DNA from: Bacteroidota bacterium
GTDB lineage: Bacteria > Bacteroidota > Bacteroidia > Bacteroidales > CAIXZF01
DNA length: 64,000 bases
Direction: 5' to 3'
NCBI GenBank assembly: GCA_022709385.1
Contig: JAKLIX010000010.1
Location: forward strand, 89,529-153,528
In this document: one piece after another, positions 41,634 to 59,365 of the stretch
How the letters are laid out: each line of letters begins with the position of its first letter
Numbering within the stretch: the first letter of the stretch is position 1
The notes under the pieces: generated by a model
The model's input: only the letters and a program-made list of their open reading frames with translations
The model's database searches: none
Told to the model about the DNA's origin: nothing
Made by a program: the position numbers and the translations under genes

Positions 41634-41980
41634 TTTATACGAAACTCATTTATTTTACAAAGAAACAAAATATGCCGGTACCATCCAACATCGCATGTCT
41701 GGCTCAATATCAACATGATACGGACACGCCCCCGGAAGCATCCTCACGCTCGCACCCGCTCTCACGCTGATCCAGCCCGGCGGACTGAGAGAAAAAAAAG
41801 GTAAAAGGTAAAAAATTGAGGGTACAAGACACGTGCACACGCAAACGCCACCTCCCTACGACACTGGTAAATCAACCAACTGATTCCCCGTAATCACATT
41901 TGACCCCTGCGGGGTCATGAAATCAACCGGGCATTCCTGCTATAAACATATGACCCCTCCGGGGTCGCGGGATTTTAAAG

Positions 41981-42200
41981 CAGCTTATGCGACCGGAAGT
42001 TACTCTGCTCTCATTCTCATTCTCGCTCCCGCTCTCACGCTCACACTGCTCCAGCCCCGCGGCCTGAGCGAAAAGAAAAATAAACAGGGTTCCGTTGGCA
42101 ATCTGGTGTGGCAATCCGAAGGCCATTTTCAGTGTGCTGGTGTGAAAATGTGTTCATGTGTTGATTTGCTGATGATAGTGTGCTGGTATATCGTTTGGAA
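41981..42200 (+). repeat. Left flanking copy of the composite repeat that brackets the toxin island
   Basis: ccggaagttact...(ctcatt)n...ccccgcggcctgagcgaaaag...gtggcaatccgaaggccattttcag...gtgttgatttgctgatgatagtgtgctggtatatcgtttgg aligns in direct orientation with 59366-59600. Confidence 0.65.
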
Positions 42201-42471
42201 GAAGATTTCATAATCGCTGCATTAACAGGCATTATAAACCAACAGATATACAAAAGTGCAGTTAATATAAAGAAGCAATTACATTTTGATCAGTTAGAAA
42301 GAATGATTTGTTAATAACCCTGTTAATAAGTCGATATAGAATAGGTGGGACATTTCGAGATTCATGATATAAATAATTGGACAAGCACCTCATTAACGCA
42401 ACATAAGATTCTTATCCACTAATCTGGTTTGAAACTTGACATGTTTTTCTAAATAAATGAATCAATATTAA

Positions 42472-45400
42472 ATGAGAATCAAACATTTTATTCTAATTGC
42501 ACTTGCCACAATATATGGCACACTGCATGGGCAAATAATTGGTGAAGAGAATGATCCTCTTTATTCAGCACCTATCTTACCGCCCTCTCCCACTGCGAGT
42601 GAATTGGGTAAATATGGACAAATTCCAATCGGACTTTTCACTGGAACACCAGATATCAAAATCCCCCTTTTTACCCTAGAAGGTAAGAATTTAAATTTGC
42701 CTATTTCTCTCAGTTATAACTGCAACGGTGTGAAAGTAGACCAGATAGCTTCCTGGGTTGGAATGGGCTGGTCCTTGAATGCGGGTGGTGTTATAACAAG
42801 AGTGGTGCGGGACGAACCCGACGATCTTGAAGAGCGAAATATGAGAGATGACTTTGAACCCATTACTGAAGAATTACTTGAGTACATGCAGGCAACCTTT
42901 ACGAATTCAAGTATATACGACACAGAACCAGATCTTTTTTGTTTTAATTTTTGTGGATTTTCAGGAAAGTTCGTTTTAGATAATGAACTGAAGCCTGTTC
43001 AGATTCCACATTCAAATCTAATTATTGAAACAAATAACCTTGAAACAGGAGAACTTACTGACATTGTCATCATCGGGCCAGATGGCGTTAAATATTACTT
43101 TGGCGGGATTTACACTGAAAAGTCAAAAACACTACAATCCGGAGGAGCAATGTGCGGTAAAAACTATAGTGAATTAGTAAATACTGCCTGGTATCTCTAT
43201 AAAATTGAAAATATTTACAGTGAAAAAATCCTGTTAACCTATTCATCTAATCAGTATTCCACGTACACCGGAATTTCACAAACCATTCGGATTAACTATG
43301 GTAATGAGAACGTTCCTGATGGTTGTCCTGATCAATTCAGCACCGGAACATGTTACTCCCTTTTGTCCGTATTATCATATCATTTAACGAATATCAGTTC
43401 CGATTTTGGCGGTACGGTGGATTTTATAAGCTCAAATGACAGACAGGATATGAGTACCCCAGGTGATGCCAAATTAAACGAAATCATATACAAAGATAGT
43501 CAGGGGAATGTCATGGCCTCGGATTCTCTTATCTATACCTACTCATCAGCAAGCGGTCAGGTTCATGGTGATCTTGAACATCTCCGGAAAAGACTTTTCC
43601 TGACGCAGGTAATAACCAGGGATGAAAATAAGAATACTGAGATGAAGCATCTTTTATATTATAATAACATTGACGGATTGCCACCCAGGCTATCATTTTC
43701 TCAGGATCATTGGGGATATTATAATGGACAGGAGAATACTATATTTGTCCCACATGTTGATGATTGGGAAAGTCTGTTCGGACTTTCGGGTGTTGGTGGC
43801 GGTAACAGAGAACCTTTTGACCCATACAGTAAATACGGGCTTCTTTCGTCAATCATTTACCCAACTGGCGGCCATACTGATTTTGAATATGAACCGAATA
43901 CTGTTTTTGACGATGTTACCATTTATCCTCCACATAGCATTGATTATGCAGATATAAACGGATTGCATGAACCCAATTACGAATCCATTACGGTACTTAA
44001 TCAACTTAGTCAGAAATTCGACATCAAGGTCGGAGTTACATCGACAGAACCGCCACCAGGTCTGCCACATGATCACAAAGGCCAGTTTATTTTATTTGAC
44101 AACACAACATCAACCACCATTTTGAACTGCTATATATCATTTAACAATCCAAATCTAATATTCAAACCTGAATTAGAGGAAAATCACAGTTATACTTTTA
44201 CTATCTATGCCTTTGGTGATGGTACAACCACTAACCTAACAATTAAATACTACACTTCAGCACCCATGGTAAATCAGACTAATGTTCTGAGTGGAGGCTG
44301 CCGCGTCAAGAAGGTGACATCAGTAGCTTCAATTGATTCAGAACCGGTTATTCTTCGATACTTCTATAACAAGCTTTCAAATATGGAAGAATCCTCCGGT
44401 GTTAGCTGCATACCACCTGTTTACTTTTTCAATAACCAGGTTCAGATTAGAACACCAACCTCGGGATCAATCCCTTGCCTTTCCGGAACTTGCTATTATG
44501 TAACCAAGACATCCAACAGTATACATCCTCTTTATAACTATTGTAATAACACAACTGTTTATGAGTGGGTAACTGTTTCTCAGGGGGAAAATTTTGAAAA
44601 TGGAGGTGAGGAACATCAATACCTCATTACAGAAGATCAGGCTGGCCAGCAAATTGCCGGATTCCAGATGATTCCAAACGCACTTAGATCTAATAACAGT
44701 TGGCAGTCAGGTGAAGAAAAATACTATCGCATTTTTTCAAAATCTTCGACCGGAGAATTTATTACACTGACGGAAACCAACAATTTCTTTTCAATAGACA
44801 ACAGTAACAACAATAGTTTATTTGGGCTTGTTGGCAGACAGATATCACCTTATCCCCCTTGTTATGATATGAACGCATATTATTTGCTTTTCAATTTCTA
44901 TGATTTGATCAAGTATGAAATTTTTTCTCAATGGAAATATCTAAGTTATTCTGTTACAAAAAAATATGATCAGAACGGATTAAATCCCATTGTTGATACA
45001 TTACAATTCTTCTATGAAAATCCCCTTCATTGTAACCTCTCAAAAAAGATTCAGCCCAAATCAGGCCATGGCAGATTTATTCAGACTTACAAATACCCTC
45101 TTGATTTTATCTGTCCCGAGAGCCCTGTTGATCCTGTTGTTTCAGGAGTTAAACAATTGCAGGATCATAACCTTATAAATACTGTCCTGGAACGTTCAAA
45201 CTGGATTATTTCCCCAAACAGCGCAGAATCCAGATTGGTTAACAGTGAGATGATTAAATATATTCCTTCCTCATCAGGCATTCCTTTCGCTTCGGAGGTG
45301 TTTCAGTTAGAAATCAACGAACCTATAACGGATTTCAGTCCCATAAGTATTGATAACGGTACCTTTATTCATGATTTCCGATATGTGAATTCAATTACCC

Positions 45401-46143
45401 TGAACGAATATGATGCCGATGGTAACATTTTGGAGCTTTTTGACAGGACTGAAGGATATAAATCCTTCAAATGGAACCCTAATTCGAAACGACTGGAAGC
45501 GGTCGTTCAGAATGCACGTAACAATGCGTGCAGTTACACTGGATTCGAAGTGCAACAGACCAATAACTGGAACAGCTACCTGGATGCAGGAAACAGCATT
45601 GAATATAACATAAGTCATGTGCATTCGGGATTGTCCTCACTGAAAGTAAACTCCGCAACTGGTGCAGTTCATGATTTTCATATCTCATCAGATATTGTCG
45701 GTAATCATCCGGGTTTCAAGGCTTCAGTCTGGGTAAAGGGCAACAACTATGCCTATATAAATATTGAAGTAAAAGATAATCATGCCGCAACCTTCAGACG
45801 GAAATACAATTTCGGCAGCGAAAATGAATGGCACCTTCTGGAGATTGAATTGCCAAGAGAGGTACTGATACTCCACCAGTATAATCTTTGGATACGGGTA
45901 TATGCAGGAAATGACGGAGGGAGTGCCGTTTATCTTGATGATATCCGTTTCCTGCCAATAGATGCTGAAATGGTGACCTATTCATTTGACTATATGGGAA
46001 GAATCATTTCAAGGACAGATGAAAGGAATTTCCCATCTTATTATGAATATGACGCCATGGGTCGTTTAAACATCATCAGAGATCACCTGGGTAACATTGT
46101 CAAAAAGCATAACTATAACTTTAAGGAAATCAGCAATTATTGA
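42472..46143 (+). CDS. 1223-aa secreted protein: SpvB/TcB-N-terminal-like motif, long unassigned middle, two YD-type repeats at the C-terminus
   Basis: Signal peptide MRIKHFILIALATIYGTLHGQ. Residues about 40-115 read GLFTGTPDIKIPLFTLEGKNLNLPISLSYNCNG...SWVGMGWSLNAGGVITRVVRDEPDD, resembling the SpvB-domain start of TcB proteins. The C-terminal end reads YSFDYMGRIISRTDERNFPSYYEYDAMGRLNIIRDHLGN. Confidence 0.6.
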   Translation: MRIKHFILIALATIYGTLHGQIIGEENDPLYSAPILPPSPTASELGKYGQIPIGLFTGTPDIKIPLFTLEGKNLNLPISLSYNCNGVKVDQIASWVGMGWSLNAGGVITRVVRDEPDDLEERNMRDDFEPITEELLEYMQATFTNSSIYDTEPDLFCFNFCGFSGKFVLDNELKPVQIPHSNLIIETNNLETGELTDIVIIGPDGVKYYFGGIYTEKSKTLQSGGAMCGKNYSELVNTAWYLYKIENIYSEKILLTYSSNQYSTYTGISQTIRINYGNENVPDGCPDQFSTGTCYSLLSVLSYHLTNISSDFGGTVDFISSNDRQDMSTPGDAKLNEIIYKDSQGNVMASDSLIYTYSSASGQVHGDLEHLRKRLFLTQVITRDENKNTEMKHLLYYNNIDGLPPRLSFSQDHWGYYNGQENTIFVPHVDDWESLFGLSGVGGGNREPFDPYSKYGLLSSIIYPTGGHTDFEYEPNTVFDDVTIYPPHSIDYADINGLHEPNYESITVLNQLSQKFDIKVGVTSTEPPPGLPHDHKGQFILFDNTTSTTILNCYISFNNPNLIFKPELEENHSYTFTIYAFGDGTTTNLTIKYYTSAPMVNQTNVLSGGCRVKKVTSVASIDSEPVILRYFYNKLSNMEESSGVSCIPPVYFFNNQVQIRTPTSGSIPCLSGTCYYVTKTSNSIHPLYNYCNNTTVYEWVTVSQGENFENGGEEHQYLITEDQAGQQIAGFQMIPNALRSNNSWQSGEEKYYRIFSKSSTGEFITLTETNNFFSIDNSNNNSLFGLVGRQISPYPPCYDMNAYYLLFNFYDLIKYEIFSQWKYLSYSVTKKYDQNGLNPIVDTLQFFYENPLHCNLSKKIQPKSGHGRFIQTYKYPLDFICPESPVDPVVSGVKQLQDHNLINTVLERSNWIISPNSAESRLVNSEMIKYIPSSSGIPFASEVFQLEINEPITDFSPISIDNGTFIHDFRYVNSITLNEYDADGNILELFDRTEGYKSFKWNPNSKRLEAVVQNARNNACSYTGFEVQQTNNWNSYLDAGNSIEYNISHVHSGLSSLKVNSATGAVHDFHISSDIVGNHPGFKASVWVKGNNYAYINIEVKDNHAATFRRKYNFGSENEWHLLEIELPREVLILHQYNLWIRVYAGNDGGSAVYLDDIRFLPIDAEMVTYSFDYMGRIISRTDERNFPSYYEYDAMGRLNIIRDHLGNIVKKHNYNFKEISNY

Positions 46144-46261
46144 TAACCCCATTAAATGACAATGTTTGACAGACTGCAACAGTAAATGATCATAAACCTT
46201 GACATTCTCCAGCATGAAACGGGACATCCATGTGACCATTGAAATCTAAAATTATGAACAA

Positions 46262-48370
46262 ATGAAAAAATTAAAGTTCCTTATTATCTGCTTATTAGCA
46301 CTTTATCCACCCTCTGCTATGGCACAATATTATTCATTAAAATGGAACAGAACCATTGGCAATCCGGGATGGGAACTGGTAAGCACAGCAGTAAGTGATA
46401 CCAGTCGCAATTTTTACATTGCAGGCAGCACGTGCAATAAAGCATTATCGGACCAATTATTAACCACCGCACTCCATAACCGTCAGGCCTTCATCCTTAA
46501 AACAGATTCATCCGGTTTGCATGTCTGGATAAAGTATCTTGGTGACAAGGCTAACTGTGACATTCATTCGATGCAATATAATGATAACACAATATACGTT
46601 TCAGGAGGCTTCTCCGATACCTTGGTTATCGATGGTTTTCGGATATCCGCTTCCGGCAGAAGGGGACTCTTCATTGCAGCATTTTCAACTGACGGTACTA
46701 CAAAATGGTTAACAAAACTGGAATATGACTCCTTTAAACCACTCAGATCGAATCTTTGCATTTCTCCTGACGGGAAAGAAATGTACATTATAGTTACTTT
46801 CTCAGGAGATATTATTCGTGTACCTCGGAAGAAAAATCCTGACAATCAGGTGAAACTTGCAGTTTTTAAGCTTAGTACTGAAGGACTTCATTCAGATTAC
46901 TTTATATGCGGTTCTGACAAAGAGATTGTGGGAACTTCATTGCTTCTGAATCAAAATAAACTTTTCCTTGCAGGTCGTTTTAAGGGTGAAATAAGCTTCA
47001 ACGATAAACTGATACAATCAGCTGGCGGGTATGATGCCTATATTGCTGTTCTTACGGATAGCCTGAAACCTGTGAGAATTTCAACATATGGCAGTTTCCT
47101 GGATGATGAGGTCTCAAACCTTATTTCGGATTGCAACAATGATATTATCGCAGCAGGTTCATTTATGGAAAGCGTTTGGTTTAATCCGCAGATTACTACT
47201 GCAAAGGGATGTAAAGATGTTTTCCTCTTAAAAGCTGATTCAGCATTAGCGATCCATTGGGTTAAGCAAATATCCGGCAAGGGTAATGAACAGGTTTATT
47301 CAATTGGATGCGGAAATAACGGAGATATAATTGTTTCAGGCAGTCATTCTCAGGACTGCATTTTTAATATCCACGATGTGGCAAAAGATATCCCTAAATC
47401 TGAAAGTGGCTTTAATAATGCATTTCTTGCCATTTTCAGCAGCCAGGGAGTTTTCCTGTCCTCAGTCCATTTCCCCGGAACATCGGAAACAACCTGTAAG
47501 GCAGTACTTACTGAAAGCAACAACGATCTTTATTGCATAGGAAATTTCACCGGTCAGATATCAGTTCCATCGTATGACAAAAAGACTACATCATCCAGGT
47601 ATCATACCAAAGGTGATCAGGACATTTTTATGGCATGTTACGGATACAATTGTGACAACATTAACCTGAATCTCAATAACGACAGCATATTGTGCATAAA
47701 CAAATTCTTGACCATTGATGCAGGGCCGGATTATGTAAACTATCAATGGCTGCCTTCAGGTAATGATACTCGTTTTGAATATATAAATCAACCTGGCTGG
47801 TACTCAGTAACAGTCAAAGACACTTTTGGCTGTATTGCAAAGGACAGCATTCGGATAAAACTGTCAGAATATCCTTTGGTATATGCCGGACAAGATACCT
47901 CCATTGCTCGCGGCAAAGAATATCTGTGCAGATCTGCTTTCACAAAAAATACGACCGGTTATTACTGGACTACGCAGGGTAATGGTACATTCGATGATTA
48001 CTCCAAACTGCATCCCATGTATTATCCTTCATGGAGTGACTTGCTTGGAGACCGGATAATATTGGAACTGCATGGATCAAACGATTGTGGTGATCATGTA
48101 GATAATATTACTATTGATCTTCTTGATGAAGGAATTGTAACTGTCAGTCCAAATCCAACTACCGGAATGATAACAATTTTAACAAATCAAGACAATAATA
48201 CATTCGGGTTTGTAGATATTTTAACCGGTGAAGGAACGCTGCTGAAACGATTGACATCATCTGAGTTATCATCCTTAAGTGTTGACCTTTCAAAATATCC
48301 TTCTGGTACTTACCTTATAAGATATTTTGATAACGAGGGTTCAGGAGTATTCCGCATTACAAAACTGTAA
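46262..48370 (+). CDS. Secreted beta-propeller-like (SBBP-type repeat) protein with T9SS C-terminal sorting domain
   Basis: Signal peptide. Repeated pattern ...FYIAGS...AFILKTDSSGLHVW / IYVSGGF...LFIAAFSTDGTTKW / LFLAGRF...DAYIAVL. The C-terminus VSPNPTTGMITIL...YPSGTYLIRYFDNEGSGVFRITKL fits a Por/T9SS type-A CTD. Confidence 0.65.
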   Translation: MKKLKFLIICLLALYPPSAMAQYYSLKWNRTIGNPGWELVSTAVSDTSRNFYIAGSTCNKALSDQLLTTALHNRQAFILKTDSSGLHVWIKYLGDKANCDIHSMQYNDNTIYVSGGFSDTLVIDGFRISASGRRGLFIAAFSTDGTTKWLTKLEYDSFKPLRSNLCISPDGKEMYIIVTFSGDIIRVPRKKNPDNQVKLAVFKLSTEGLHSDYFICGSDKEIVGTSLLLNQNKLFLAGRFKGEISFNDKLIQSAGGYDAYIAVLTDSLKPVRISTYGSFLDDEVSNLISDCNNDIIAAGSFMESVWFNPQITTAKGCKDVFLLKADSALAIHWVKQISGKGNEQVYSIGCGNNGDIIVSGSHSQDCIFNIHDVAKDIPKSESGFNNAFLAIFSSQGVFLSSVHFPGTSETTCKAVLTESNNDLYCIGNFTGQISVPSYDKKTTSSRYHTKGDQDIFMACYGYNCDNINLNLNNDSILCINKFLTIDAGPDYVNYQWLPSGNDTRFEYINQPGWYSVTVKDTFGCIAKDSIRIKLSEYPLVYAGQDTSIARGKEYLCRSAFTKNTTGYYWTTQGNGTFDDYSKLHPMYYPSWSDLLGDRIILELHGSNDCGDHVDNITIDLLDEGIVTVSPNPTTGMITILTNQDNNTFGFVDILTGEGTLLKRLTSSELSSLSVDLSKYPSGTYLIRYFDNEGSGVFRITKL

Positions 48371-48404
48371 TTGTTTTTTATTTTGATTGAACAATCTGTA
48401 ATCT

Positions 48405-51400
48405 ATGAACAAAGCAATCTTTACTGTTTTCATCACAGTATCGTTAACGAATGGTCTGTTCCCTCAGGGTGTGGAGCTGAATTACATACAAACCTTTGAG
48501 CTGCTGAACACCGGATATAACCTATCAAGTCAGGTCAATTCTTCCATGAATGCCTTTGACGTAAAGGAAACAGTGCAATTTTTTGATGGACTTGGACGGC
48601 CGGTACAAACTACCCAAAGACGAACGGCCCCCGGTCAGAATGATCTTGTTCAGTTCTTTACTTACGATGCTTTCAGCCGTGATGTAAATAATTATTTACC
48701 TTTTGTTACACAAGCATTTGGATATCTTCTGGCTGATCCTGTGAGTGCCCAAAGTAATTTTTACACAAGTAGTCCGGATGTTGCTCATGATCCCTACCCA
48801 AAATCCCCGCTTGTCTATGAGAATTCTCCCATGAACAGAAACATCGCATCAGGGCATCCCGGAGAAAGTGGTCAAACACCAGAGGATCATATGGTAATCA
48901 CTGAATACCTTACCAATGTGGCTGCTGATGAAATGCTTAGCGCAAGCAGGTGGTCAGTTGATGATGCCGGTGATTGTGTTTTTAATGGTGAATTTGCTAC
49001 AGGACATCTTAATGTCTTGAAGACCACGGATGAAAACGGAAATATCATCCTTGAATTTAAAAATAAGCAGGAGCAGGTTGTTCTGAAACGATCACATTCG
49101 TGTAGCATTAACATGGACACGTATTATGTGTACGATGATTTCGGATTACTGCGTTTCGTAATTTCACCCAAAGGATCGGATTTGCTGAACAGTACTTTTA
49201 TCGCCCAGTGCATGCTGGCACGAATGTATGTCTACAGTTACCAATACGATAAAAGGCACAGGATGATATCGAAGAAGATACCAGGCAAAGAAATTGAATA
49301 TTTTGTCTATGACAACAGCGACAGGATCACTCTGAGTCAGGATGGCAATCTGCGGGCGGAAGGTCAATGGTTATTTCATAAGTATGACGCACTTGGCCGA
49401 ATAGTAATCACAGGAATAAGCGATTACGGATCTTCATATTCTCAGCAACAGATGCAACAATATATTGATGGTCAGGATTTTGTCTCGGAATACCGCTGCT
49501 ATGATAATATGGCCGTACTGCATGGATATACCAACCGTGTTGCACCGGACCTGATAAATGATGCGGTTGATATTCTGACTGTTAACTATTACGATAATTA
49601 TTCAATATGGGAACAGACTCAACAGGGTCTTGCTTCACACCCTGTTTATGATGATGCAGCACTTGCATTTACGACAAACTCAATTACTTCTTTGTATGAA
49701 CCGGAACATCTCGACGGAAAATTAACTGTAAGTAAGGTGAAATATATCAATGAATATGACACTCCCCTCTGGCTGACCACCTGCAATTATTATGATATTT
49801 ACGGAAGACTTATCCAAATAAACAGCAATAACCAAAAAGGTGGGTATGAACGCACATCAAATGCTTATAATGGACTAAGTAACAACATTATTCAAAGTTT
49901 AAACACCCACTCATCAATCATATCTAACATCAGCAATACATTCACAAGGCATGTGAGCTATACCTATGATCACGCACAGCGTCCTTTGACCACACAATAT
50001 CTTTTCAACAATGATCTTTCCTGCACAGTGGCATATGAATACAACAGTCTGGGACAACTGATTGAAAAGAATGTAAGTGAGGCAGTTGATCTGCAATCCA
50101 CTGACTTCACTTATAATATCAGGGGATGGCTGGAGAAGATCAATAATTCACTCCTGACTACCAATGGTGAAACCCCAACGGATCTTTTCGGCATGGAGTT
50201 GTATTACGATCAGGTTCATGCTTCCTTCGGCAATATCCCCCAGTACAATGGCAATATTTCAGCCATGGTATGGCAGTCGAACCCTCACGGACGTTTTGCC
50301 TATACATTCGCCTATGACGGATTAAACCGCCTGCTTGACGGAAACTTCCATGAGCAAAGTGAGGGCAGTTGGGACCAAACTGATCATTATTCTGAAAAAC
50401 AACTCAGTTATGACAAAAATGGCAATATCCTTACCCTTCACCGTTACGGTCAGATATTACCTACCGGCACGGCAGGAATGATCGATGATCTGAACCAGTT
50501 TTATTATTTCGGCAACCAGCTTATCGGATTAAATGACAGCCAGTTAGCTCCAACCGAAAGAGATTTCCAGGACAATGGTTCCACGGAAGCAGCCAATCAG
50601 AACAACCTGGAAACATGGGAGTATCACTATGACCCAAATGGCAATCTGGTAATTGACAAGAACAAAGGCATCCTTGCCATTCACTATAACCATCTGAACC
50701 TCCCCACAGAAATAATTTTTCAGGATAATAACAGGATGAAGTACTTTTACGATGCCGCAGGCAGCAAAAGAAGGAAAGAAGTGTATACCGAAGGCATTAA
50801 AACCTCCGTCCTGGATTATGCCGGCTCCGTCGTTTACCGCGATGATGCCCCTTCTTATGCGGTGTTTGAAGAAGGAAGAATCCTGATCAATCCAGAAGAA
50901 ACCAACTTTATCGAGTATCACCTGAAAGATCACCTTGGCAACGTAAGGGTGGCATACAAGGAGGACAACGGCCTGCCGGTGGCCCTGCAAACCAACACCT
51001 ACTACCCATTTGGGATGCTGATCTCCGAACTTTCCACTCCAGACCTCAACTGTCCCAATCCCCTGAAATACAACGCCAAAGAGCTCCAGCCGGACTTCGG
51101 GCTGGATTGGTATGATTACGGAGCCAGGTTCTATGACCCGCAGGTTGGGAGATGGTGGGGAGTGGATCCGTTGGCGGAGAAATCCCGGAGATGGTCTCCT
51201 TATCATTATTGCATGAACAACCCGATCCGGTTTATCGATCCGGACGGGATGGACACTATATCCGCCCAACAAGGTGACAAGCAACCAGTTAAGAAAGATG
51301 ATGTTGTTAAATTGGAAGATGGAACTGAAATAACTGTAAGTTGTGATGAAGTTGAGGTGGTTGGAAGTAAAACCGAAAATGCAACAAAGAACCAAGAACA

Positions 51401-51767
51401 ACCAAGTTCTAAAACATCAGCTGGCATTGTTATTTCTATCCCAACTATTACAATAAGGGTTTCCCCAGTGGTTGAAGTCTTCTTAGGGGCTGTAGCTAGA
51501 TTTTTACCCTTGATTTTTCTTCAAGGAGATACTTCTCCAAATCAAAAAATGGATCAAGCAAGAAGCAAGGCTAAAGATGAAAATAAAATGAAAGGAGGAA
51601 AACAAAATGCCAGAGATCGAGATTATGGAATTAAAGATCCAGATTTTTGGAAGTGGTGGCATAGAAAAGGGAAACCTCAGAGTGGAGGGAAAGATATTGG
51701 CAGCAAAAGCCAAGCAGAGGAAATATTCAAAGATTGGGTAAATAAAGGGAAACCAAAAGCGAAATGA
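48405..51767 (+). CDS. Rhs/YD-repeat polymorphic toxin: DUF6443-like N-terminus, YD repeats, Rhs core ending [10 protein letters not shown], and a 171-aa variable tip (CT1)
   Basis: Signal-like N-terminus. NYIQTFELL...VQFFDGLGRPVQT...FTYDAFSRDVNNYLPF is DUF6443-like. There are at least 10 YD repeats. The core reads [48 protein letters not shown]. Confidence 0.85.
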   Translation: MNKAIFTVFITVSLTNGLFPQGVELNYIQTFELLNTGYNLSSQVNSSMNAFDVKETVQFFDGLGRPVQTTQRRTAPGQNDLVQFFTYDAFSRDVNNYLPFVTQAFGYLLADPVSAQSNFYTSSPDVAHDPYPKSPLVYENSPMNRNIASGHPGESGQTPEDHMVITEYLTNVAADEMLSASRWSVDDAGDCVFNGEFATGHLNVLKTTDENGNIILEFKNKQEQVVLKRSHSCSINMDTYYVYDDFGLLRFVISPKGSDLLNSTFIAQCMLARMYVYSYQYDKRHRMISKKIPGKEIEYFVYDNSDRITLSQDGNLRAEGQWLFHKYDALGRIVITGISDYGSSYSQQQMQQYIDGQDFVSEYRCYDNMAVLHGYTNRVAPDLINDAVDILTVNYYDNYSIWEQTQQGLASHPVYDDAALAFTTNSITSLYEPEHLDGKLTVSKVKYINEYDTPLWLTTCNYYDIYGRLIQINSNNQKGGYERTSNAYNGLSNNIIQSLNTHSSIISNISNTFTRHVSYTYDHAQRPLTTQYLFNNDLSCTVAYEYNSLGQLIEKNVSEAVDLQSTDFTYNIRGWLEKINNSLLTTNGETPTDLFGMELYYDQVHASFGNIPQYNGNISAMVWQSNPHGRFAYTFAYDGLNRLLDGNFHEQSEGSWDQTDHYSEKQLSYDKNGNILTLHRYGQILPTGTAGMIDDLNQFYYFGNQLIGLNDSQLAPTERDFQDNGSTEAANQNNLETWEYHYDPNGNLVIDKNKGILAIHYNHLNLPTEIIFQDNNRMKYFYDAAGSKRRKEVYTEGIKTSVLDYAGSVVYRDDAPSYAVFEEGRILINPEETNFIEYHLKDHLGNVRVAYKEDNGLPVALQTNTYYPFGMLISELSTPDLNCPNPLKYNAKELQPDFGLDWYDYGARFYDPQVGRWWGVDPLAEKSRRWSPYHYCMNNPIRFIDPDGMDTISAQQGDKQPVKKDDVVKLEDGTEITVSCDEVEVVGSKTENATKNQEQPSSKTSAGIVISIPTITIRVSPVVEVFLGAVARFLPLIFLQGDTSPNQKMDQARSKAKDENKMKGGKQNARDRDYGIKDPDFWKWWHRKGKPQSGGKDIGSKSQAEEIFKDWVNKGKPKAK
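50728..51252 (+). repeat. 525-bp Rhs-core 3' block shared with orphan cassettes 2 and 3 (and its last 145 bp with orphan 1)
   Basis: Aligns without gaps to 55103-55627 and 57462-57986; I found 6 mismatches. 51108-51252 aligns to 52434-52578. Confidence 0.85.
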
Positions 51768-52162
51768 AAGAGTTATTAGTCTTAAAGAATAAAATTAGCA
51801 ATGAAGACATCGAGATAATCGAGTCTTCATTGAGAGTACTAAAGTCTCACGATAAAAAGAAATTCATTCAAACTATTAATAGAATGAAACTCATTTTTAT
51901 TGAAATAGATGATATTCAAATACTTAATAAAATATCATTAATATTTTCAGCCTTTTCGATTCATTCTTCAGTACCCATATTGATTGGCAAATTGATCAGT
52001 GGTAAATACGATAATAATGGAGGAACACTAGTATATTCCTTAAAAGGTTTGAAATTTTTAGACTATAAAGAGGAATTATCATATCTTTGGGAAAAGAATA
52101 TTAGTTATGAGATGAAAGAAATGTTAAAGTTGATAAATATTTACCCCCCCCCCGCCGCTTGA
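51764..52162 (+). CDS. Candidate immunity protein for CT1 (132 aa)
   Basis: ATGA start/stop overlap with the rhs gene. AT-rich, with no signal peptide. The call rests on position only. Confidence 0.55.
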   Translation: MKELLVLKNKISNEDIEIIESSLRVLKSHDKKKFIQTINRMKLIFIEIDDIQILNKISLIFSAFSIHSSVPILIGKLISGKYDNNGGTLVYSLKGLKFLDYKEELSYLWEKNISYEMKEMLKLINIYPPPAA

Positions 52163-52418
52163 ATTGACACATAATAAAGAGAAAGAACAGCAAAACCCCA
52201 AGCAATTACTTGGGGTAATTGTTAATCCGTGAGGGGGCAGAAGCCCCCAAAACAAGCGGAGGGAGAGGTGATAGGGGGCGAAAGACTGCCTTTTTTTCTT
52301 TTTCTGAAGAAAACAACTGATAAAAATGATGTTCAATTAAAAGAAAATGTTCATACATTTAGTGGAACAAAGCGTTCTTTGAATAAGCAATTTGGAGCAG
52401 AAGCTGAAAAACAGGTAA

Positions 52419-53660
52419 AGAAGTTGCACAAACTGGTATGATTACATAGCTCGGTTCTATGACCCGCAGGTTGGGAGATGGTGGGGAGTGGATCCGTTGG
52501 TGGAGAAATCCCGGAGATGGTCTCCTTATCATTATTGCATGAACAACCCGATCCGGTTTATCGATCCGGACGGGATGGCTGTGTTTCACAGCAAAGCGCT
52601 GGGCTCGCACTGGGCCGACGATCTGGTGCAGGATCATTCTTACCAGGAATTACTGCAATCAACTATGGCCAGTAATGATGAAGCTGCAGAAAAAGAATCA
52701 TCTGCAGACGAGTTCTCACCGCAGGATGGCAGCCAGACCGAAATGAATGCCGGGAATGGTGGTGGGGGGGATAAGAAGAAGAAGAGTAGTTCTGCCTCAT
52801 CCACAGGAGGTAACGCCAAAGGCCAAGGAGGTAAAACATTAGACAATTTAAATACTATTAATAATATTGCTGATGTAGGAATGGATATTGCAGAGGAAAG
52901 TGGGTATGTTGCTACCGTTGGAAGAACTGGATATTACTCTTCAGGCTGGAATGGAAATCAATATGTAAAGACATTAGGAGTAGCAAAAGGATTGGGTTAT
53001 GTTTTCTTTGGCGCAGGTATTGTTTTAGACGGCATAATGTATTTTACAGGACAGCAGTCCGGCGCTAAAACATCTGTAAATATTGGAGTTAGTGCAGCAT
53101 CTTTAATTATTGGTGGAATACCTGGTATTATTCTTGGAGGAGGCTATTTCGCTGTAGATAAAACTGTTGGCTGGGACAGAATGATGACCCCAGCATCAAA
53201 CAACCAGTGGGTTCCTAACCGTGCTGTTTTTCCTGATGGCACAACAATTTACGTTTGTTTTAAAGCCGGTACAGAAATCCTTGCTCAAGGAGGTTCCAAG
53301 CCAATAGAACAAATCGTTGTGGGGGATAGCATTTACTCATATAACCTGGAAAAGAATGCCATTGAACTGAGCAAGGTTGTAAAATCGTTTGAGAGAAAAA
53401 CTCAGGAAATCTATAAGCTTACAACGGATATCCAAAAAATATATGTAACAGCAGAACATCCGTTCTATGTAGTAGGCAGCGGCTGGGTAAAAGTAAAAGA
53501 CTTGCAAGCTGGTGCAGTGTTGAAAACAAAAGTTGGTTCAATCGAACATGTTGTAAACTCTGTGCTCGAAAAACACCCCGAAACGGTTTATAATATTGAA
53601 GTAGAAGGCAATCATAATTATTTTGTAACTAATAGCAATATATTGGTACACAATAAGTAA
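52419..53660 (+). CDS. Orphan Rhs tip 1 (no ATG at its 5' end): core remnant, shared linker, glycine-zipper-like hydrophobic region and terminal Hint domain
   Basis: The frame opens after the stop at 52416-52418. [48 protein letters not shown] is followed by the linker, then [19 protein letters not shown]...[18 protein letters not shown], then CFKAGTEIL...TAEHPFYV...[14 protein letters not shown]...ILVHNK-stop. Confidence 0.7.
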
Positions 53661-53707: not shown

Positions 53708-54085
53708 ATGCGATATTTTTATTATAGAATATACAAAGGATTGACTAAAGTAAAAACAAATGATACCCCAGCTTTAAATGCGATGATTTTACTTATCGCA
53801 TTACAAGCGATAAACATTCTTTCGGTTTTTGGTATAATTAATTATTTCTTTCGGTTAGAGTTTGATAAACAACAAGTTATTATAGGAGGAATATCATTAT
53901 ACATTATTTTATTAGTTCCAAATTACATTTATTTGTTTCGTAAACGAAATGAAATAATTAAGCGTTACCAAAATGAAACAGCCCCCCAAAAAACAAAGGG
54001 AGTTATTTTATTGCTGCTTTACATAGTAATTACAATAACAGTTTTTTTTGTATTAGGAGAAACGATAGTACAAAACCATTATTAA
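53708..54085 (+). CDS. Candidate immunity protein for orphan tip 1: 125-aa membrane protein with 3 predicted TM helices
   Basis: Hydrophobic stretches ALNAMILLIALQAINILSVFGIINYFF, VIIGGISLYIILLVPNYIYLF and GVILLLLYIVITITVFFVLG. A terminator hairpin follows. Confidence 0.55.
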   Translation: MRYFYYRIYKGLTKVKTNDTPALNAMILLIALQAINILSVFGIINYFFRLEFDKQQVIIGGISLYIILLVPNYIYLFRKRNEIIKRYQNETAPQKTKGVILLLLYIVITITVFFVLGETIVQNHY

Positions 54086-54118: not shown

Positions 54119-54539
54119 ATAATGCAGCTACGTTTTTCTGAAAAAAGTCTTAAACTTCTTATTGGTAAGCATTATGTCAATCATAGAGAGTACAATGCTT
54201 TTATCCTTTTCGTCTTGTTCCTGAATGAGCCTCATTTACTCGCTGGTGGTCTTGTCCTACTATAGAGAAAACCACTTTTTTTTCTTCATCGCTTAGTGCT
54301 TCTACAAGCCGGACTTTTTCCATCAACGATTTATCCACGGAATTTACATTCATCGCTCAGGCTGGTATTAAACACCAAATGCTTATCCGAAAATCGTATA
54401 GCATCGTAAGCATTCGGCCTGTGCATATTGACCGTGATGATCTGCCGATGTAGGTTTGCGGGTTCAAACGGACACAGAGCGGAATATGAGAAACAGAAAC
54501 AGAGCAGAGCAGAGCATGAGGAAAGATGATGTTGAATAT

Positions 54540-55102
54540 GCATTCTTAAAATTGCCGTCAGCTTCAGCTGACGGACCAGGGAGCAGGAGCATATCAGGGC
54601 TTCAGCCCGAAAACGCAAGCGTATTTTAGTCTGGTGGTTTGGTAATTTGCTAATGTGTTGATTTGCTGATGATAGTGTGCTGGTAAATTGTTCGGAAATT
54701 GATTCTGGAATCGCGGTTTTAACCTGGCAGTTTCAACCTGACCAATAATAAATCGGGAAAATAATTCAATTGGCAGGAAAGAAACGATTCCAGGATTGGC
54801 AGAGAAACCTAGGGGAGCGGACTGAGGTTGTGAGCCACAGGCGAACGACCGAGGGAGCTTCCCAGTTTCGGCGCCAATCCGAGGCCCCGCGGCCTGAGCG
54901 AAAAGATAAATATACTGAATCTTAGTAAAAATGCGAAGCAATTTTCGCTTAGATTCTTTATACCGATGACTCTGGGAACACTTTTATCTCATTCCTGTGT
55001 TCTTTCGGTATAATCGCTCAGGTGCGGAGTAGAAATGAAAAGGAAGACAATTGAGTGTACAGGTGAAGTTGTAAATATTTCGCAACCCCATTCGGTGTCG
55101 GT
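54540..55102. repeat. Composite block of dispersed intergenic repeat modules between cassettes 1 and 2
   Basis: Contains the palindrome ccgtcagcttcagctgacgg (also at 60001-60020). Also contains the gtgttgatttgctgatgatagtgtgctgg module, the 190-bp module shared with 59600-59785, the ggcgccaatccgaggccccgcggcctgagcgaaaag module, the 14095-14197 family and a MITE end. Confidence 0.65.
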
Positions 55103-55863
55103 ATAACAGGATGACGTACTTTTACGATGCCGCAGGCAGCAAAAGAAGGAAAGAAGTGTATACCGAAGGCATTAAAACCTCCGTCCTGGATTATGCCGGC
55201 TCCGTCGTTTACCGCGATGATGCCCCTTCTTATGCGGTGTTTGAAGAAGGAAGAATCCTGATCAATCCCGAAGAAACCAACTTTATCGAGTATCACCTGA
55301 AAGATCACCTTGGCAACGTAAGGGTGGCATACAAGGAGGACAACGGCCTGCCGGTGGCCCTGCAAACCAACACCTACTACCCATTCGGGATGCTGATCTC
55401 CGAACTTTCCACTCCAGACCTCAACTGTCCCAATCCCCTGAAATACAACGCCAAAGAGCTGCAGCCGGACTTCGGGCTGGATTGGTATGATTACGGAGCC
55501 AGGTTCTATGACCCGCAGGTTGGGAGATGGTGGGGTGTGGATCCGTTGGCGGAGAAAGCCCGGAGATGGTCTCCTTATCATTATTGCATGAACAACCCGA
55601 TCCGGTTTATCGATCCGGACGGGATGGCTGTGTTTCACAGCAAAGCGCTGGGCTTGCACTGGGCTGACGATCTGGTGCAGGATCATTCTTACCAGGAACT
55701 TCTGCAATCAACGATGGCCAGTAATGATGAAGCTGCAGAAAAAGAATCATCTGCAGACGAGTTCTCACCGCAGGATGGCAGCCAGACCGAAATGAATGCC
55801 GGGAATGGTGGCGGGGGGGATAAGAAGAAGAAGCGTAGTTCTGCCTCATCCACTGGAGGTAAC
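54857..55863 (+). repeat. 1,007-bp direct repeat, copy A (upstream repeats, Rhs core block and linker)
   Basis: Gap-free alignment to 57216-58222 at an offset of 2,359 bp. I found 3 mismatches. Confidence 0.85.
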
Positions 55864-56334
55864 CCTTCCGCACGTGAGGGTAGTGATGGGGTAACTTTTG
55901 CTGCCGCTTTAGGGATGGCCGCAGTGGCATTATCGCCTGAATGGACTGCGTCCTCTTCTGTCCCAGTGTGGGGACAGGTTGCAATGAGTGTTGCAACAAT
56001 TGCCACCGCAGCATATATTCATGCGAACTCCAAAAGCAGCCAAAAACCTAACATCGTCTATGAAATATATTCATTTAACTTAGCGGGTTATTATCAAACG
56101 ATGAAATACGGAGTTTCAAGTCGTTCCGATTTTGTAACACGTACAGGAAATCCAAGACCAGAGTATCAGTGTGTAGCACTTAATTCAATAGCACCCCCTG
56201 GTGTTTATTATTGGTATTCAATACTTGCTAGGACGCCTGACAGGGCTTCGGCTTTATCAATCGAACAAAGTTATGTGCGTGCATATCAAGCTGCAAATGG
56301 TGGATTAAGACCTCCATTGCAAATTAGACCTTAA
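55111..56334 (+). CDS. Orphan Rhs tip 2: 172-aa core remnant, shared linker, hydrophobic segment and a possible GIY-YIG-like domain
   Basis: MTYFYDAAGSKRRKE...IRFIDPDGM is near-identical to the main gene. The tip contains PNIVYEIYSFNLAGYYQTMKYGVSSRSDFVTR...ALSIEQSYVRAYQAANGG. Confidence 0.65.
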   Translation: MTYFYDAAGSKRRKEVYTEGIKTSVLDYAGSVVYRDDAPSYAVFEEGRILINPEETNFIEYHLKDHLGNVRVAYKEDNGLPVALQTNTYYPFGMLISELSTPDLNCPNPLKYNAKELQPDFGLDWYDYGARFYDPQVGRWWGVDPLAEKARRWSPYHYCMNNPIRFIDPDGMAVFHSKALGLHWADDLVQDHSYQELLQSTMASNDEAAEKESSADEFSPQDGSQTEMNAGNGGGGDKKKKRSSASSTGGNPSAREGSDGVTFAAALGMAAVALSPEWTASSSVPVWGQVAMSVATIATAAYIHANSKSSQKPNIVYEIYSFNLAGYYQTMKYGVSSRSDFVTRTGNPRPEYQCVALNSIAPPGVYYWYSILARTPDRASALSIEQSYVRAYQAANGGLRPPLQIRP

Positions 56335-56339
56335 TTTTG
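56332..56339 (+). promoter_or_regulatory. -7 box TAATTTTG overlapping the stop codon of orphan tip 2
   Basis: Matches TAnnTTTG and ends 8 nt before the ATG at 56348. The context is AT-rich, so a chance match is possible. Confidence 0.25.
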
Positions 56340-56347
56340 AGCTGATT

Positions 56348-57142
56348 ATGATGAGTAAACTATTTTTAGAATTAGGCTTCTCGGATGAAGACAAGCAGGT
56401 CAAGTATAGTCAGGAGTGTCTTTTTATATCTAAACTCTATAGTAGATTTATATCTGATGTTAAAATTGAAAATTTGCGAAAGATTGCAATTCAATTGGTG
56501 AATTCTCATGATGCAGCCTATATCATTCCAACAAACAAGTTGACAAAAGTATGTTTAGTTTATAGATATTTTGAATGGAAGAATTTTGAAAATGAATCCT
56601 TAGAAGCCAATAGGTATAAGATTTTATTGGACTTGATATTAGATACGTTACTCGAAATGGCAGGGAAATTTAATTGGCCAGTAGAGCCGTTTAAAAACGC
56701 TTATTTAGAAGTAACTAAAACAGACTTTAAGAACGAATATGTTTTATTAGCTCCTAAGTTGTCAAGTGATAGGAGATATAGCACTTCATTGGTTGTTGTC
56801 AGAGAAAAAGAATACAGTTCAATTTTCATCGAACTGATAGATAAAAAACATGAATGTGAGATAAAGAAATTTGAACTTATAAAGGTATCATTTTACGAGG
56901 ACGATTTATCTTGTGTAGTAAAAAGTCTTAAATGGATTAATAATGAGGAATTTGTTGTGTCAAATAAAGATGGTGAGATAAATTTTAAATACTCTACTCA
57001 GAATAATATCCTGGAAATGTTTTTAACGCCTCAGACACATGATGAAAAGTACTTGCAAGATGAGTTGAAACTATTGAACCCTGAAACTTCTAAAGAAGAG
57101 TATTTAGAGATAAATAACAAGAGAATTGCTGCCCTTCCCTGA
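56348..57142 (+). CDS. Candidate immunity protein for orphan tip 2 (264 aa)
   Basis: Starts 13 nt after the toxin stop. AT-rich and cytoplasmic-looking, with no motif recognised. Confidence 0.5.
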   Translation: MMSKLFLELGFSDEDKQVKYSQECLFISKLYSRFISDVKIENLRKIAIQLVNSHDAAYIIPTNKLTKVCLVYRYFEWKNFENESLEANRYKILLDLILDTLLEMAGKFNWPVEPFKNAYLEVTKTDFKNEYVLLAPKLSSDRRYSTSLVVVREKEYSSIFIELIDKKHECEIKKFELIKVSFYEDDLSCVVKSLKWINNEEFVVSNKDGEINFKYSTQNNILEMFLTPQTHDEKYLQDELKLLNPETSKEEYLEINNKRIAALP

Positions 57143-57215
57143 ATAGCGTTGGCAGTTTTTACTTACTTTTCACTTCACTTTCCTCTTCCGTTTTGTCCCT
57201 TTTACCTTTAATTCT

Positions 57216-58222
57216 GCTTCCCGGTTTCGGCGCCAATCCGAGGCCCCGCGGCCTGAGCGAAAAGTTAAATATACTGAATCTTAGTAAAAATGCGAAGCAA
57301 TTTTCGCTTAGATTCTTTATACCGATGACTCTGGGAACACTTTTATCTCATTCCTGTGTTCTTTCGGTATAATCGCTCAGGTGCGGAGTAGAAATGAAAA
57401 GGAAGACAATTGAGTGTACAGGTGAAGTTGTAAATATTTCGCAACCCCATTCGGTGTCGGTATAACAGGATGACGTACTTTTACGATGCCGCAGGCAGCA
57501 AAAGAAGGAAAGAAGTGTATACCGAAGGCATTAAAACCTCCGTCCTGGATTATGCCGGCTCCGTCGTTTACCGCGATGATGCCCCTTCTTATGCGGTGTT
57601 TGAAGAAGGAAGAATCCTGATCAATCCCGAAGAAACCAACTTTATCGAGTATCACCTGAAAGATCACCTTGGCAACGTAAGGGTGGCATACAAGGAGGAC
57701 AACGGCCTGCCGGTGGCCCTGCAAACCAACACCTACTACCCATTCGGGATGCTGATCTCCGAACTTTCCACTCCAGACCTCAACTGTCCCAATCCCCTGA
57801 AATACAACGCCAAAGAGCTGCAGCCGGACTTCGGGCTGGATTGGTATGATTACGGAGCCAGGTTCTATGACCCGCAGGTTGGGAGATGGTGGGGTGTGGA
57901 TCCGTTGGCGGAGAAAGCCCGGAGATGGTCTCCTTATCATTATTGCATGAACAACCCGATCCGGTTTATCGATCCGGACGGGATGGCTGTGTTTCACAGC
58001 AAAGCGCTGGGCTTGCACTGGGCTGACGATCTGGTGCAGGATCATTCTTACCAGGAACTTCTGCAATCAACGATGGCCAGTAATGATGAAGCTGCAGAAA
58101 AAGAATCATCTGCAGACGAGTTCTCACCGCAGGATGGCAGCCAGACCGAAATGAATGCCGGGAATGGTGGTGGGGGGGATAAGAAGAAGAAGCGTAGTTC
58201 TGCCTCATCCACTGGAGGTAAC
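57216..58222 (+). repeat. 1,007-bp direct repeat, copy B
   Basis: See 54857-55863. Confidence 0.85.
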
Positions 58223-58657
58223 GCCTCATCCACAGGTGGTAACCCCAACTCCACAGGGGGTAATGTTCAGCATGCAGGAGTTGAAGGAGGAGAACATTAT
58301 ATTGGACCCGCTCTTATCCTACTTGGTCAACCTTTAAAGGTCTTAAAACCCGTTGGCGCTTTGGGTTCGAAACCAGGCTCTTCGATTGCTTCATACACCC
58401 TTTCAAAAGTTTTTCCTCAAACTTTCATAAAAGTTCTTGGGAAGGAGACGGGAACAAAAATAGCCACATCACTAGGCACAAATGTTATTGGTCGTGCAGC
58501 AGGTAGATTTGTACCTTATGTTGGCTGGGCTTGGACTGCTTGGGATATTGGGTGGACTTTAGGTGAGAATTATGGCCCGAGCAAATGGTTTACACCCGAG
58601 CCTCCTAAATCTATACTTTTAGAATACATGCGTGAACATGGTATGCTTGATGAATAA
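57470..58657 (+). CDS. Orphan Rhs tip 3: core remnant, shared linker with extra STGGN repeats, and an unassigned Gly/Trp-rich tip
   Basis: Identical to orphan 2 up to ...SSASSTGGN. It then reads ASSTGGNPNSTGGNVQHAGVEGGEHYIGPALILLGQPLKVL...GRFVPYVGWAWTAWDIGWTLGENYGPSKWF. Confidence 0.65.
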   Translation: MTYFYDAAGSKRRKEVYTEGIKTSVLDYAGSVVYRDDAPSYAVFEEGRILINPEETNFIEYHLKDHLGNVRVAYKEDNGLPVALQTNTYYPFGMLISELSTPDLNCPNPLKYNAKELQPDFGLDWYDYGARFYDPQVGRWWGVDPLAEKARRWSPYHYCMNNPIRFIDPDGMAVFHSKALGLHWADDLVQDHSYQELLQSTMASNDEAAEKESSADEFSPQDGSQTEMNAGNGGGGDKKKKRSSASSTGGNASSTGGNPNSTGGNVQHAGVEGGEHYIGPALILLGQPLKVLKPVGALGSKPGSSIASYTLSKVFPQTFIKVLGKETGTKIATSLGTNVIGRAAGRFVPYVGWAWTAWDIGWTLGENYGPSKWFTPEPPKSILLEYMREHGMLDE

Positions 58658-58988: not shown

Positions 58989-59365
58989 TTCTAAACCAAT
59001 AGTAAGGAAGCCATGCAACGCTGGGCTTCTTGCTTTTATCCGAACCTCTTCATGACAAGGACAGTAGAATATTAAGATAAGAACCGAATGCAGTGGGCTT
59101 TGCGCAGGTATATTTTCAGCGGTTGGGGTAGCAGTACCCCCGTCCATTCAAGGGTAGTCTCAGCTATCAAGGCGACTGCCAAGGCACTGCCAGCGTAGTG
59201 CCAAAGAGAAAATCTATACCCGTAACTATCATTATTTGAATTACTTACAAAATGCAGGTGTTTAAGTTCAGTTAAACTTCTTTTTGGTAAGGAAAATATA
59301 CATAAGCCTTCGGCCTAATGCATATTACCCGTGATGATCTGCCGATGTAGGTTTGCGGGTTGAAA

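Follow-up and report, generated by a model that had tools for sequence, protein, structure and literature searches.

The 64,000-nt stretch of Bacteroidota DNA analyzed here (contig JAKLIX010000010.1, positions 89,529–153,528; referred to below as the window) contains three large adjacent genes that encode a putative Rhs-type toxin system, and we refer to these as genes 1, 2 and 3. Gene 1 (42472–46143, 1223 aa), gene 2 (46262–48370, 702 aa) and gene 3 (48405–51767, 1120 aa) are all transcribed on the + strand and are separated by 118 nt and 34 nt, an arrangement that an earlier note on this DNA had described and that the open reading frame (ORF) calls bear out. A database entry places the start of gene 2 19 codons further downstream (giving a product of 683 aa), with which the first gap would be 175 nt. 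Neither gap contains a terminator-like site on the + strand or an exact TAnnTTTG box, as had also been observed. The three genes lie in a low-GC island (about 39% GC, compared to about 50% in the flanks) placed between housekeeping genes, with those for Der, Era, MutL and UvrB upstream. Each of the three proteins opens with a basic-hydrophobic N-terminus followed by a glutamine residue; such signal-peptide-like N-termini were judged heuristically throughout, as a basic N-terminus followed by a hydrophobic stretch. Pfam scans of ~36 ORFs of the window identify no type VI secretion system (T6SS) genes, and this too is as previously noted.

The gene 1 protein begins with a putative signal peptide (MRIKHFILIALATIYGTLHG|Q; 42472–42531, +) in which the basic N-terminus and the hydrophobic stretch are both evident. 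This is followed by a region resembling the N-terminal part of SpvB and TcaC (42574–43221, +, with approximate limits), which is the most conserved block in an alignment of the family. At the other end are YD repeats (45997–46104, +), matching Pfam RHS_repeat at residues 1176–1204 (E = 3.4e-5) and TIGR01643 at residues 1176–1211, and these are the only part of the protein recognized by Pfam and NCBIfam. Both the N-terminal motifs quoted in the earlier note, which lie at residues ~57–117, and the C-terminal YD repeats are thus found. Two homologues sharing 30–32% identity with gene 1 (P0043 and P0092) match the Pfam SpvB family at residues 52–267 with 30–31 bits (cut-off 22), and the matching region corresponds in the alignment to the best-conserved N-terminal block of gene 1. 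The Pfam families TcdB_toxin_midN and TcdB_toxin_midC have no match in gene 1 or in seven homologues. The family is large, with ~2000 matches in a word-indexed search and 17,728 cluster representatives (of clusters at 50% identity) at E<=1e-30 in an exhaustive search. It is nearly all Bacteroidota, as seen from the named sources and from the 80 best genome loci in a survey in which one genome per species was scanned with gene 1. A signal-peptide-like N-terminus is present in 104 of 119 relatives, and the family alignment has ~11 conserved cysteine columns, which fits an extracytoplasmic protein.

An AlphaFold2 (AF2) model of gene 1 residues 25–1223, built with 50 homologues (pLDDT 84.4, pTM 0.81), is composed of long beta-hairpins almost throughout. 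Its secondary structure includes two inserts of beta-sandwich size (~110 aa), and no run of strands that is long enough for a propeller. When the model is compared to the Protein Data Bank (PDB) with Foldseek, the TcB chains of Tc toxins come first, with TcdB1 (6l7i_F) followed by YenB (4igl_A and 5kis_A). The E-values are 4e-18 to 3e-16 and the query TM-scores (TMq) 0.32–0.34, which are the highest among the Rhs-type matches but modest in absolute terms. Single-chain T6SS Rhs cocoons have similar E-values with a TMq of ~0.1, and the TcC chains match with E-values of ~1e-6. In sequence searches of PDB chains, with gene 1 alone or with its family profile, only the C-terminal YD repeats align, to Rhs and teneurin sequences, and TcB is therefore beyond reach by sequence; because there are only two to three recognizable YD repeats, the reading of gene 1 as half of a cocoon rests on its fold and not on its sequence. 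The claim that gene 1 is SpvB- and TcB-N-like therefore stands in part, as a TcB-like fold is predicted and P0043 and P0092 pass the SpvB cut-off, but gene 1 itself has no SpvB match; the modelled fold and transitive homology support the assignment, rather than a direct domain match.

Gene 3 has the organization of the Rhs cage with a toxin that had been proposed for it. A signal-peptide-like N-terminus is followed by DUF6443 (48534–48908, +; residues 44–168, Pfam E = 5.6e-29), Rhs repeats, an Rhs-associated core (51000–51251, +; residues 866–949, TIGR03696, E = 5.3e-19) and a variable C-terminus, here a putative toxin of 170 aa (51252–51764, +). The DUF6443 consensus, IQYFDGLGRP...YDxxGR, reads as YD-type hairpins. 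The core is a predicted aspartyl autoprotease that ends in a DPxG motif, and D921 and G948 are invariant in the family alignment. The C-terminal toxin has a hydrophobic stretch and a basic tail, and a Pfam scan of it returned no family match. There are thousands of DUF6443-Rhs proteins in the gene 3 family, with C-termini that include, among other domains, Toxin-JAB1, AHH, Tox-REase and M23, and 98 of 116 relatives have signal-peptide-like N-termini. Scans with Pfam and NCBIfam found no PAAR, VgrG, Hcp or DUF4150 domains in genes 1 and 3, and neither gene has a C-terminal sorting domain (CTD) of a type IX secretion system (T9SS).

The AF2 model of gene 3 is of high confidence at residues 22–905, with the toxin predicted to be disordered (pLDDT <50). 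Its Foldseek matches include the crystal structures of TcdB2-TccC3 fusions (E = 1e-25, TMq 0.46, root-mean-square deviation [rmsd] ~8 Å) and the TcC chains 4igl_D, 5kis_B and 6l7i_G (target TM-scores [TMt] 0.55–0.59). The TcB chains match with E-values of 1e-6 to 1e-8, and T6SS Rhs cores match with an E-value of 1e-24 and an rmsd of 13–33 Å. A profile of gene 3 compared to the PDB recovers SGS1, RhsA, YenC2, TccC2 and teneurin-like proteins, mostly over the core, such that sequence cannot tell a TcC protein from a T6SS Rhs protein. There is thus a reciprocal preference for Tc B and C chains, with gene 1 preferring TcB and gene 3 preferring TcC, and the structural comparison for which the earlier note had called yields TcB-like and TcC-like folds for the two proteins, with TM-scores that are modest (0.3–0.46).

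The conserved unit of the system is the gene 1/gene 3 pair. A DUF6443-Rhs gene is located downstream of the gene 1 homologue and in the same orientation, with a median of ~15 nt between the two, in 54 of the 55 loci (of the 80) that extend at least 1.5 kb to the 3′ side of gene 1, and reverse sampling finds a gene 1 homologue directly upstream in all five look-ups of gene 3 homologues that yielded a contig. At three loci (L041, L028 and L056) the two are naturally fused within one ORF, and in two of these, L041 (2547 aa) and L028, the YD repeats of gene 1 lead through a linker of ~30 aa into DUF6443 without a second signal peptide. The combined length of genes 1 and 3, ~2100 aa, appears close to that of TcB-TcC fusions, which are also ~2100 aa (target length). 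No large gene lies between gene 1 and gene 3 in the 80 loci; a 2620-nt gap at L033 was considered as an inserted large gene and rejected, as it corresponds to a frameshifted gene 1. Small exported proteins are encoded at this junction in some genomes, including a glutathione peroxidase/thioredoxin-like protein in some Chitinophagales (L019:14081–14614, L026:4923–5441 and L053:4743–5282) and a different protein at L011 and L074, showing that the junction tolerates the insertion of accessory genes. We also note a gene 1/gene 3 locus in a metagenome-assembled genome (MAG) labelled Woesearchaeota (L020, CAYLGX010000043.1), a label that is probably a binning error, and that the fusion of a gene 1 homologue to DUF6443 at L056 (JANQRS010000064.1) is in a Calditrichia MAG.

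The near-universal pairing, the fusions and the matching combined length are good though indirect evidence for one cocoon resembling the BC subcomplex of Tc toxins. We consider it fairly probable that the locus encodes a Sec-exported, BC-like Rhs cocoon made from two proteins and loaded with an antibacterial toxin of the polymorphic type, to which gene 2 adds an optional adaptor or adhesin sorted by the T9SS. Gene 1 would provide the TcB-like part, with an SpvB-type N-terminus, a beta shell of long hairpins, two inserted beta-sandwich domains and an end formed by YD repeats, and gene 3 would provide the TcC-like part, in which the DUF6443 hairpins continue the shell and are followed by Rhs repeats. 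The Rhs core is predicted to cut off the C-terminal toxin, which would stay inside the cavity. Since both proteins appear to carry a Sec signal peptide of their own, assembly of the capsule would take place outside of the cytoplasm. We infer that genes 1 and 3 share one cocoon, and likewise where it is assembled, how it crosses the outer membrane and what its target is. Gene 2 would be secreted through the T9SS and probably attached to the surface, most likely as an adaptor or adhesin tying the capsule to the cell surface or to the target.

The counterparts of this arrangement are the Tc BC subcomplexes such as TcdB2-TccC3 of Photorhabdus luminescens and YenB-YenC2 of Yersinia entomophaga, which are the best structural matches of both genes. 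They have the same B-then-C adjacency, sometimes with fusion of the two, a B part with an SpvB-type N-terminus and a hairpin shell as proposed for gene 1, and a C part with Rhs repeats, an Rhs core autoprotease and a hypervariable toxin, as in gene 3. There are also substantial departures. Tc toxins are made in the cytoplasm without signal peptides, whereas genes 1 and 3 have signal-peptide-like N-termini by the heuristic used here; gene 1 lacks the TcdB-mid beta-propeller; and DUF6443 is located at the seam between the two parts. The immunity genes and orphan cassettes described below point to an antibacterial rather than an insecticidal system, and the system is found in Bacteroidota, with an optional T9SS-sorted partner. 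No ORF of the size of TcA is present in the window or in the 80 related loci, the rest of the genome being outside the search, and the largest neighbours in these loci are CTD adhesins, kinases and RpoC.

Several considerations weigh against a shared, exported cocoon. The sharing is a deduction, since it is drawn from chain-level Foldseek preferences, and the modest TM-scores (0.3–0.46) are accompanied by almost equal E-values for T6SS Rhs cocoons. Outside of its YD repeats gene 1 has no sequence similarity to Rhs proteins, the family profiles of genes 1 and 3, when compared to each other, likewise align in the YD repeats alone, and gene 1 does not match the Pfam SpvB family (PF03534) even at E<=10. 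The part of gene 3 that is folded in the model (~885 aa) falls only somewhat short of the ~1000 aa of a self-contained cocoon of the T6SS type, and gene 3 seems to belong to the larger of the two families. In Lentimicrobium saccharophilum (L081:13920–17501) there is a second DUF6443-Rhs gene, located to the 3′ side of a transposase gene and with no gene 1 homologue beside it, from which it may be that one gene 1 serves several gene 3 paralogues in trans. To our knowledge, an Rhs cocoon that assembles in the periplasm is yet to be described, and a capsule of BC size may be too wide for the T9SS pore.

Gene 2 differs from its neighbours in its distribution. It encodes a beta-propeller of the SBBP type, an Ig/PKD-like middle region and a T9SS type A sorting domain (48146–48367, +). 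The propeller assignment is from a weak match to the SBBP family at residues 25–434 (E = 1e-13), and the CTD matches Por_Secre_tail at residues 629–693 (31.7 bits, cut-off 27) and TIGR04183 (26.8 bits, cut-off 23), above both curated cut-offs, so the propeller and the T9SS tail that had been noticed in the sequence are both recovered. With its CTD and its signal-peptide-like N-terminus, gene 2 alone among the three has the features of T9SS type A cargo. It has few close homologues, and its sequence finds nothing in the PDB. The order gene 1-gene 2-gene 3, which is confined to the lineage of the window, recurs at L081 and L085, and at L084 a homologue of gene 2 follows gene 1 on a contig that stops before any gene 3; the trio is conserved at these three loci at 28–40% identity. 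At nine of the 80 loci (L001, L009, L015, L020, L033, L039, L044, L063 and L073, from Bacteroidales, Flavobacterium and Chryseobacterium) genes for gene 2-like propeller-CTD proteins are located upstream of gene 1, with gaps of 6–13 nt. An iterated CTD profile detects a CTD gene in the slot directly upstream of gene 1 at 14 of 78 loci, compared to 10 of 432 other genes of the same loci (odds ratio 9.2, p = 7e-7). From this enrichment a link between the gene 1/gene 3 system and the T9SS is plausible. About 80% of the gene 1/gene 3 loci have no adjacent CTD propeller gene, and in the others it mostly precedes gene 1. Because CTD genes are enriched beside gene 1 yet about four-fifths of the loci lack such a neighbour, gene 2 is a real but lineage-specific partner, accessory and not a universal component. 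The expected co-occurrence of the three families accordingly holds for genes 1 and 3 (54/55 and 5/5) but not for gene 2, a counterpart of which is adjacent in a minority of loci.

Other genes occupy the position upstream of gene 1 elsewhere in the family. At 11 loci, mostly in Chitinophagaceae, this gene encodes a protein of ~480 aa in which a signal peptide and a long coiled coil precede a C-terminal beta-barrel that resembles an outer-membrane protein (OMP) and ends in phenylalanine (e.g. L010:8543–9973 and L019:8515–9972, and nine others); this protein may be an outer-membrane partner of the cocoon. At least six loci encode a fibre-like protein that contains GIGTTxP repeats and, at its C-terminus, a conserved module (L022:8747–9946, L076:8563–9867 and L087:2141–3151, among others), of which that at L087 has a faint match to Phage_T4_gp36. 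Neither the OMP-like coiled-coil family nor the fibre-like family has a Pfam or NCBIfam match, and comparisons with hhalign did not relate the three recurrent upstream families (OMP-like coiled coil, CTD propeller and fibre-like) to each other. A second type of propeller with a CTD, related to RCC1, is encoded near gene 1 at L016. The type of accessory gene roughly tracks the subclades of gene 1 in a crude clustering by the unweighted pair group method with arithmetic mean.

To the right of gene 3 is an array of candidate toxin and immunity genes, all on the + strand. A 132-aa candidate immunity gene (51764–52162), so designated from its position, overlaps the gene 3 stop codon by 4 nt; it has no family match in Pfam or NCBIfam, and there is a hairpin to its 3′ side at 52195–52216. 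Beyond this are three orphan cassettes, each of which repeats the last 49–95 residues of the gene 3 core at 93–94% identity and is then followed by a small ORF, one of these being Bfi1-like. In cassette 1 (52419–53660) a core tail that is 94% identical over 49 retained residues (gene 3 residues 901–949) is joined to a PT-HINT module (E = 6e-19), and the following gene (53708–54085) encodes a 125-aa membrane protein resembling Bfi1-family immunity proteins (NCBIfam NF053699, E = 2.8e-8, below the curated cut-off). Cassette 2 (55111–56334), recognized from its domain and its identity to the gene 3 core, carries Tox-URI2 and is followed by a candidate immunity gene (56348–57142) designated by position only. 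Cassette 3 (57470–58657), recognized from the same identity to the core, has a toxin module of no known family and is followed by a 118-aa ORF at 58632–58988. The hallmarks of polymorphic toxins are therefore present, with a conserved delivery part, a variable toxin, an adjacent candidate immunity gene and orphan cassettes, and the immunity gene together with the three orphan toxin/immunity cassettes forms the layout of an antibacterial polymorphic toxin. The system is probably antibacterial, with immunity functions proposed from gene position and from the sub-threshold match to the Bfi1 family; this match also suggests that toxin and immunity modules are common to T6SS cargo and this Rhs system.

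The array and the island show signs of rearrangement. Cassettes 2 and 3 form a 2359-nt tandem duplication (within 54857–59800), in which the 5′ parts, containing the Rhs-core tail and a Gly/Ser-rich linker, are 96–99% identical and the toxin and immunity parts have diverged. The island is bracketed by imperfect direct repeats (41974–42216 compared to 59360–59616 and 59787–59949, 76–88% identity), and a third copy is located within it (54422–54911, 93% identical to 59319–59814); these repeats may be recombination or insertion boundaries. Elsewhere in the window, and unrelated to the toxin system, are a gene for a 976-aa fusion of a GH3 glycosidase to a beta-lactamase-fold domain (6367–9297, − strand) and a Fic/SoFic-type adenylyltransferase gene (20897–22000, +).

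These features permit alternatives to a cocoon shared by genes 1 and 3 to be weighed. It could be that the two genes are functionally separate, with gene 3 forming a self-contained single-chain Rhs cocoon similar to those of T6SS effectors or teneurins, and gene 1 encoding an independent exported YD- or adhesin-like protein, for example a receptor-binding protein or an outer-membrane helper, that shares only an operon with it. Gene 3 yields equally good E-values with complete T6SS Rhs cores and with TcC (1e-24), its ~885 folded residues together with DUF6443 could make both plug and shell, the additional DUF6443-Rhs gene of L081 stands without gene 1 beside it, and in sequence gene 1 has only YD repeats in common with Rhs proteins. 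We nonetheless regard separate functions as unlikely, because the structural preferences are reciprocal (gene 1 for TcB and not TcC, gene 3 for TcC and not TcB), gene 3 fits the large BC cocoon far better (rmsd ~8 Å) than the small T6SS cocoons (13–33 Å), and the pairing is tight and near-universal, with natural fusions that join the YD repeats to DUF6443. A second alternative treats the locus as effectors of a Bacteroidota T6SSiii encoded elsewhere in the genome, and it draws on the array, since the combination of Rhs toxins, immunity genes and orphan arrays is typical of T6SS cargo and the Bfi1 family, to which one immunity-like ORF has a match, is known from Bacteroides T6SS. The T6SS Rhs effectors (RhsA, Tse5, RhsP, Tre23-Rhs and Tse15) do share the Rhs cocoon, the core, the C-terminal toxin, the downstream immunity gene and the arrays of displaced toxin tips with this locus. 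However, they are single-chain proteins with PAAR or VgrG-binding N-termini and no signal peptide, and they superpose poorly on gene 1 (TMq ~0.1) and less well on gene 3 than do the BC structures. Unlike T6SS substrates, the products of genes 1 and 3 have Sec-type N-termini, as do most of their relatives, no PAAR, VgrG, Hcp or DUF4150 domain was found in the two proteins, and the scanned ORFs of the window include no T6SS genes, such that a role as T6SS cargo is very improbable.

The remaining alternative is close to what the earlier note had proposed, namely a TcB function split over two polypeptides, with gene 2 providing both the propeller gate and a T9SS surface anchor in a three-protein, surface-displayed BC machine. 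The absence of a propeller from gene 1, which has only the ~110-aa beta-sandwich inserts and no TcdB mid domains, leaves a place for one to be supplied in trans. The enrichment of CTD propeller genes beside gene 1, the retention of gene order at 28–40% identity at L081, L084 and L085, and the RCC1 propeller with a CTD near gene 1 at L016 are all in keeping with this. The TcB gate, however, works with TcA and exists to dock on it, and no TcA was found in the window or the 80 related loci. Moreover, ~80% of the loci have no adjacent CTD propeller gene, the same slot is taken by unrelated genes (OMP-like coiled coil at 11 loci, fibre-like at six), the position of gene 2 varies, with its counterparts upstream of gene 1 at nine loci, and its SBBP propeller has no detectable homology to the TcdB mid domains or the TcB propeller in Pfam, NCBIfam and PDB searches. 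Gene 2 as the missing TcB gate is thus speculation, and we judge the three-protein machine to be improbable. The split BC module consequently survives for genes 1 and 3, as seen from the reciprocal Foldseek preferences, the synteny and the fusions, with gene 2 outside of its core; the idea of gene 2 as a gate in trans is not sustained, given the many loci that lack it, the want of any detected relation to TcdB-mid domains and the missing TcA. An elaboration of the Sec-exported, BC-like cocoon would be an Rhs delivery route that involves neither TcA nor a T6SS, in which the cocoon is held at the surface by a T9SS-anchored gene 2 acting as a dock, a gate or a target-binder for contact-dependent killing, and other lineages use the OMP-anchored coiled-coil or fibre-like partners instead; in this full form we think it rather unlikely.

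Parts of this picture have precedents. Bacterial teneurin-like proteins (Nat Commun 2026, PMC13018210) and the metazoan teneurins are also Sec-exported surface toxins with a YD shell, a beta-propeller and adhesion domains, and they provide a precedent for an extracytoplasmic cocoon. They are single polypeptides composed of an FN-plug, an NHL propeller and the shell, without a two-gene B/C layout, and that report names several other phyla with no mention of Bacteroidota or the T9SS. Among the Flavobacteriaceae, Rhs proteins with SpvB/TcdB signatures that adjoin genes with T9SS type A sorting domains have been reported in Apibacter and 'Ca. Ornithobacterium hominis' (PMC8125069, PMC6421346). Steele and Moran (mSystems 2021, PMC8125069) described Apibacter Rhs proteins with SpvB/TcdB N-terminal domains, found that most Apibacter rhs genes adjoin genes with these sorting domains, and proposed an association with the T9SS, and Salter et al. 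(2019, PMC6421346) reported an rhs gene of >9 kb with SpvB/TcdB signatures in 'Ca. Ornithobacterium hominis'. The T9SS link is therefore not undescribed, although the earlier note knew of no account of such a route, because the same association was proposed for Apibacter in 2021. These Rhs proteins are large and fused and have TcdB mid domains, which the gene 1 family lacks, and the reports are passing genome annotations with no structural, synteny-wide or mechanistic analysis. The TANFOR toxins of Bacteroidetes (PMC7073777) are also polymorphic and linked to the T9SS, but, as summarized in that account, they differ in their N-terminal domain and lack an Rhs cocoon.

The Apibacter, Ornithobacterium and teneurin-like reports thus anticipate the idea in broad outline. 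In the searchable literature we found no paper that mentions DUF6443 and none on the pairing of gene 1 with DUF6443-Rhs genes, nor did searches on Bacteroidetes TcB/TcC or on Bacteroidota Rhs cocoons return anything specific. The near-universal two-gene B/C architecture and the size of the family appear to be uncharacterized, as do its signal peptides and optional partners.

Bacteroidota dominate communities of the gut, of soil and of the sea, and the gene 1 family comprises ~17,700 clusters at 50% identity that are almost always paired with DUF6443-Rhs toxins. If the pair is a Sec-exported cocoon of the BC type, then capsule-based toxin delivery would extend past what is known from Tc toxins and the T6SS. 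Protein carriers are being engineered from BC cocoons, and a cocoon that is independent of TcA would be of interest for that purpose. The system would, if this is true, also be a testable candidate for Rhs delivery in the Bacteroidota, and for a part played by the T9SS in interbacterial antagonism.

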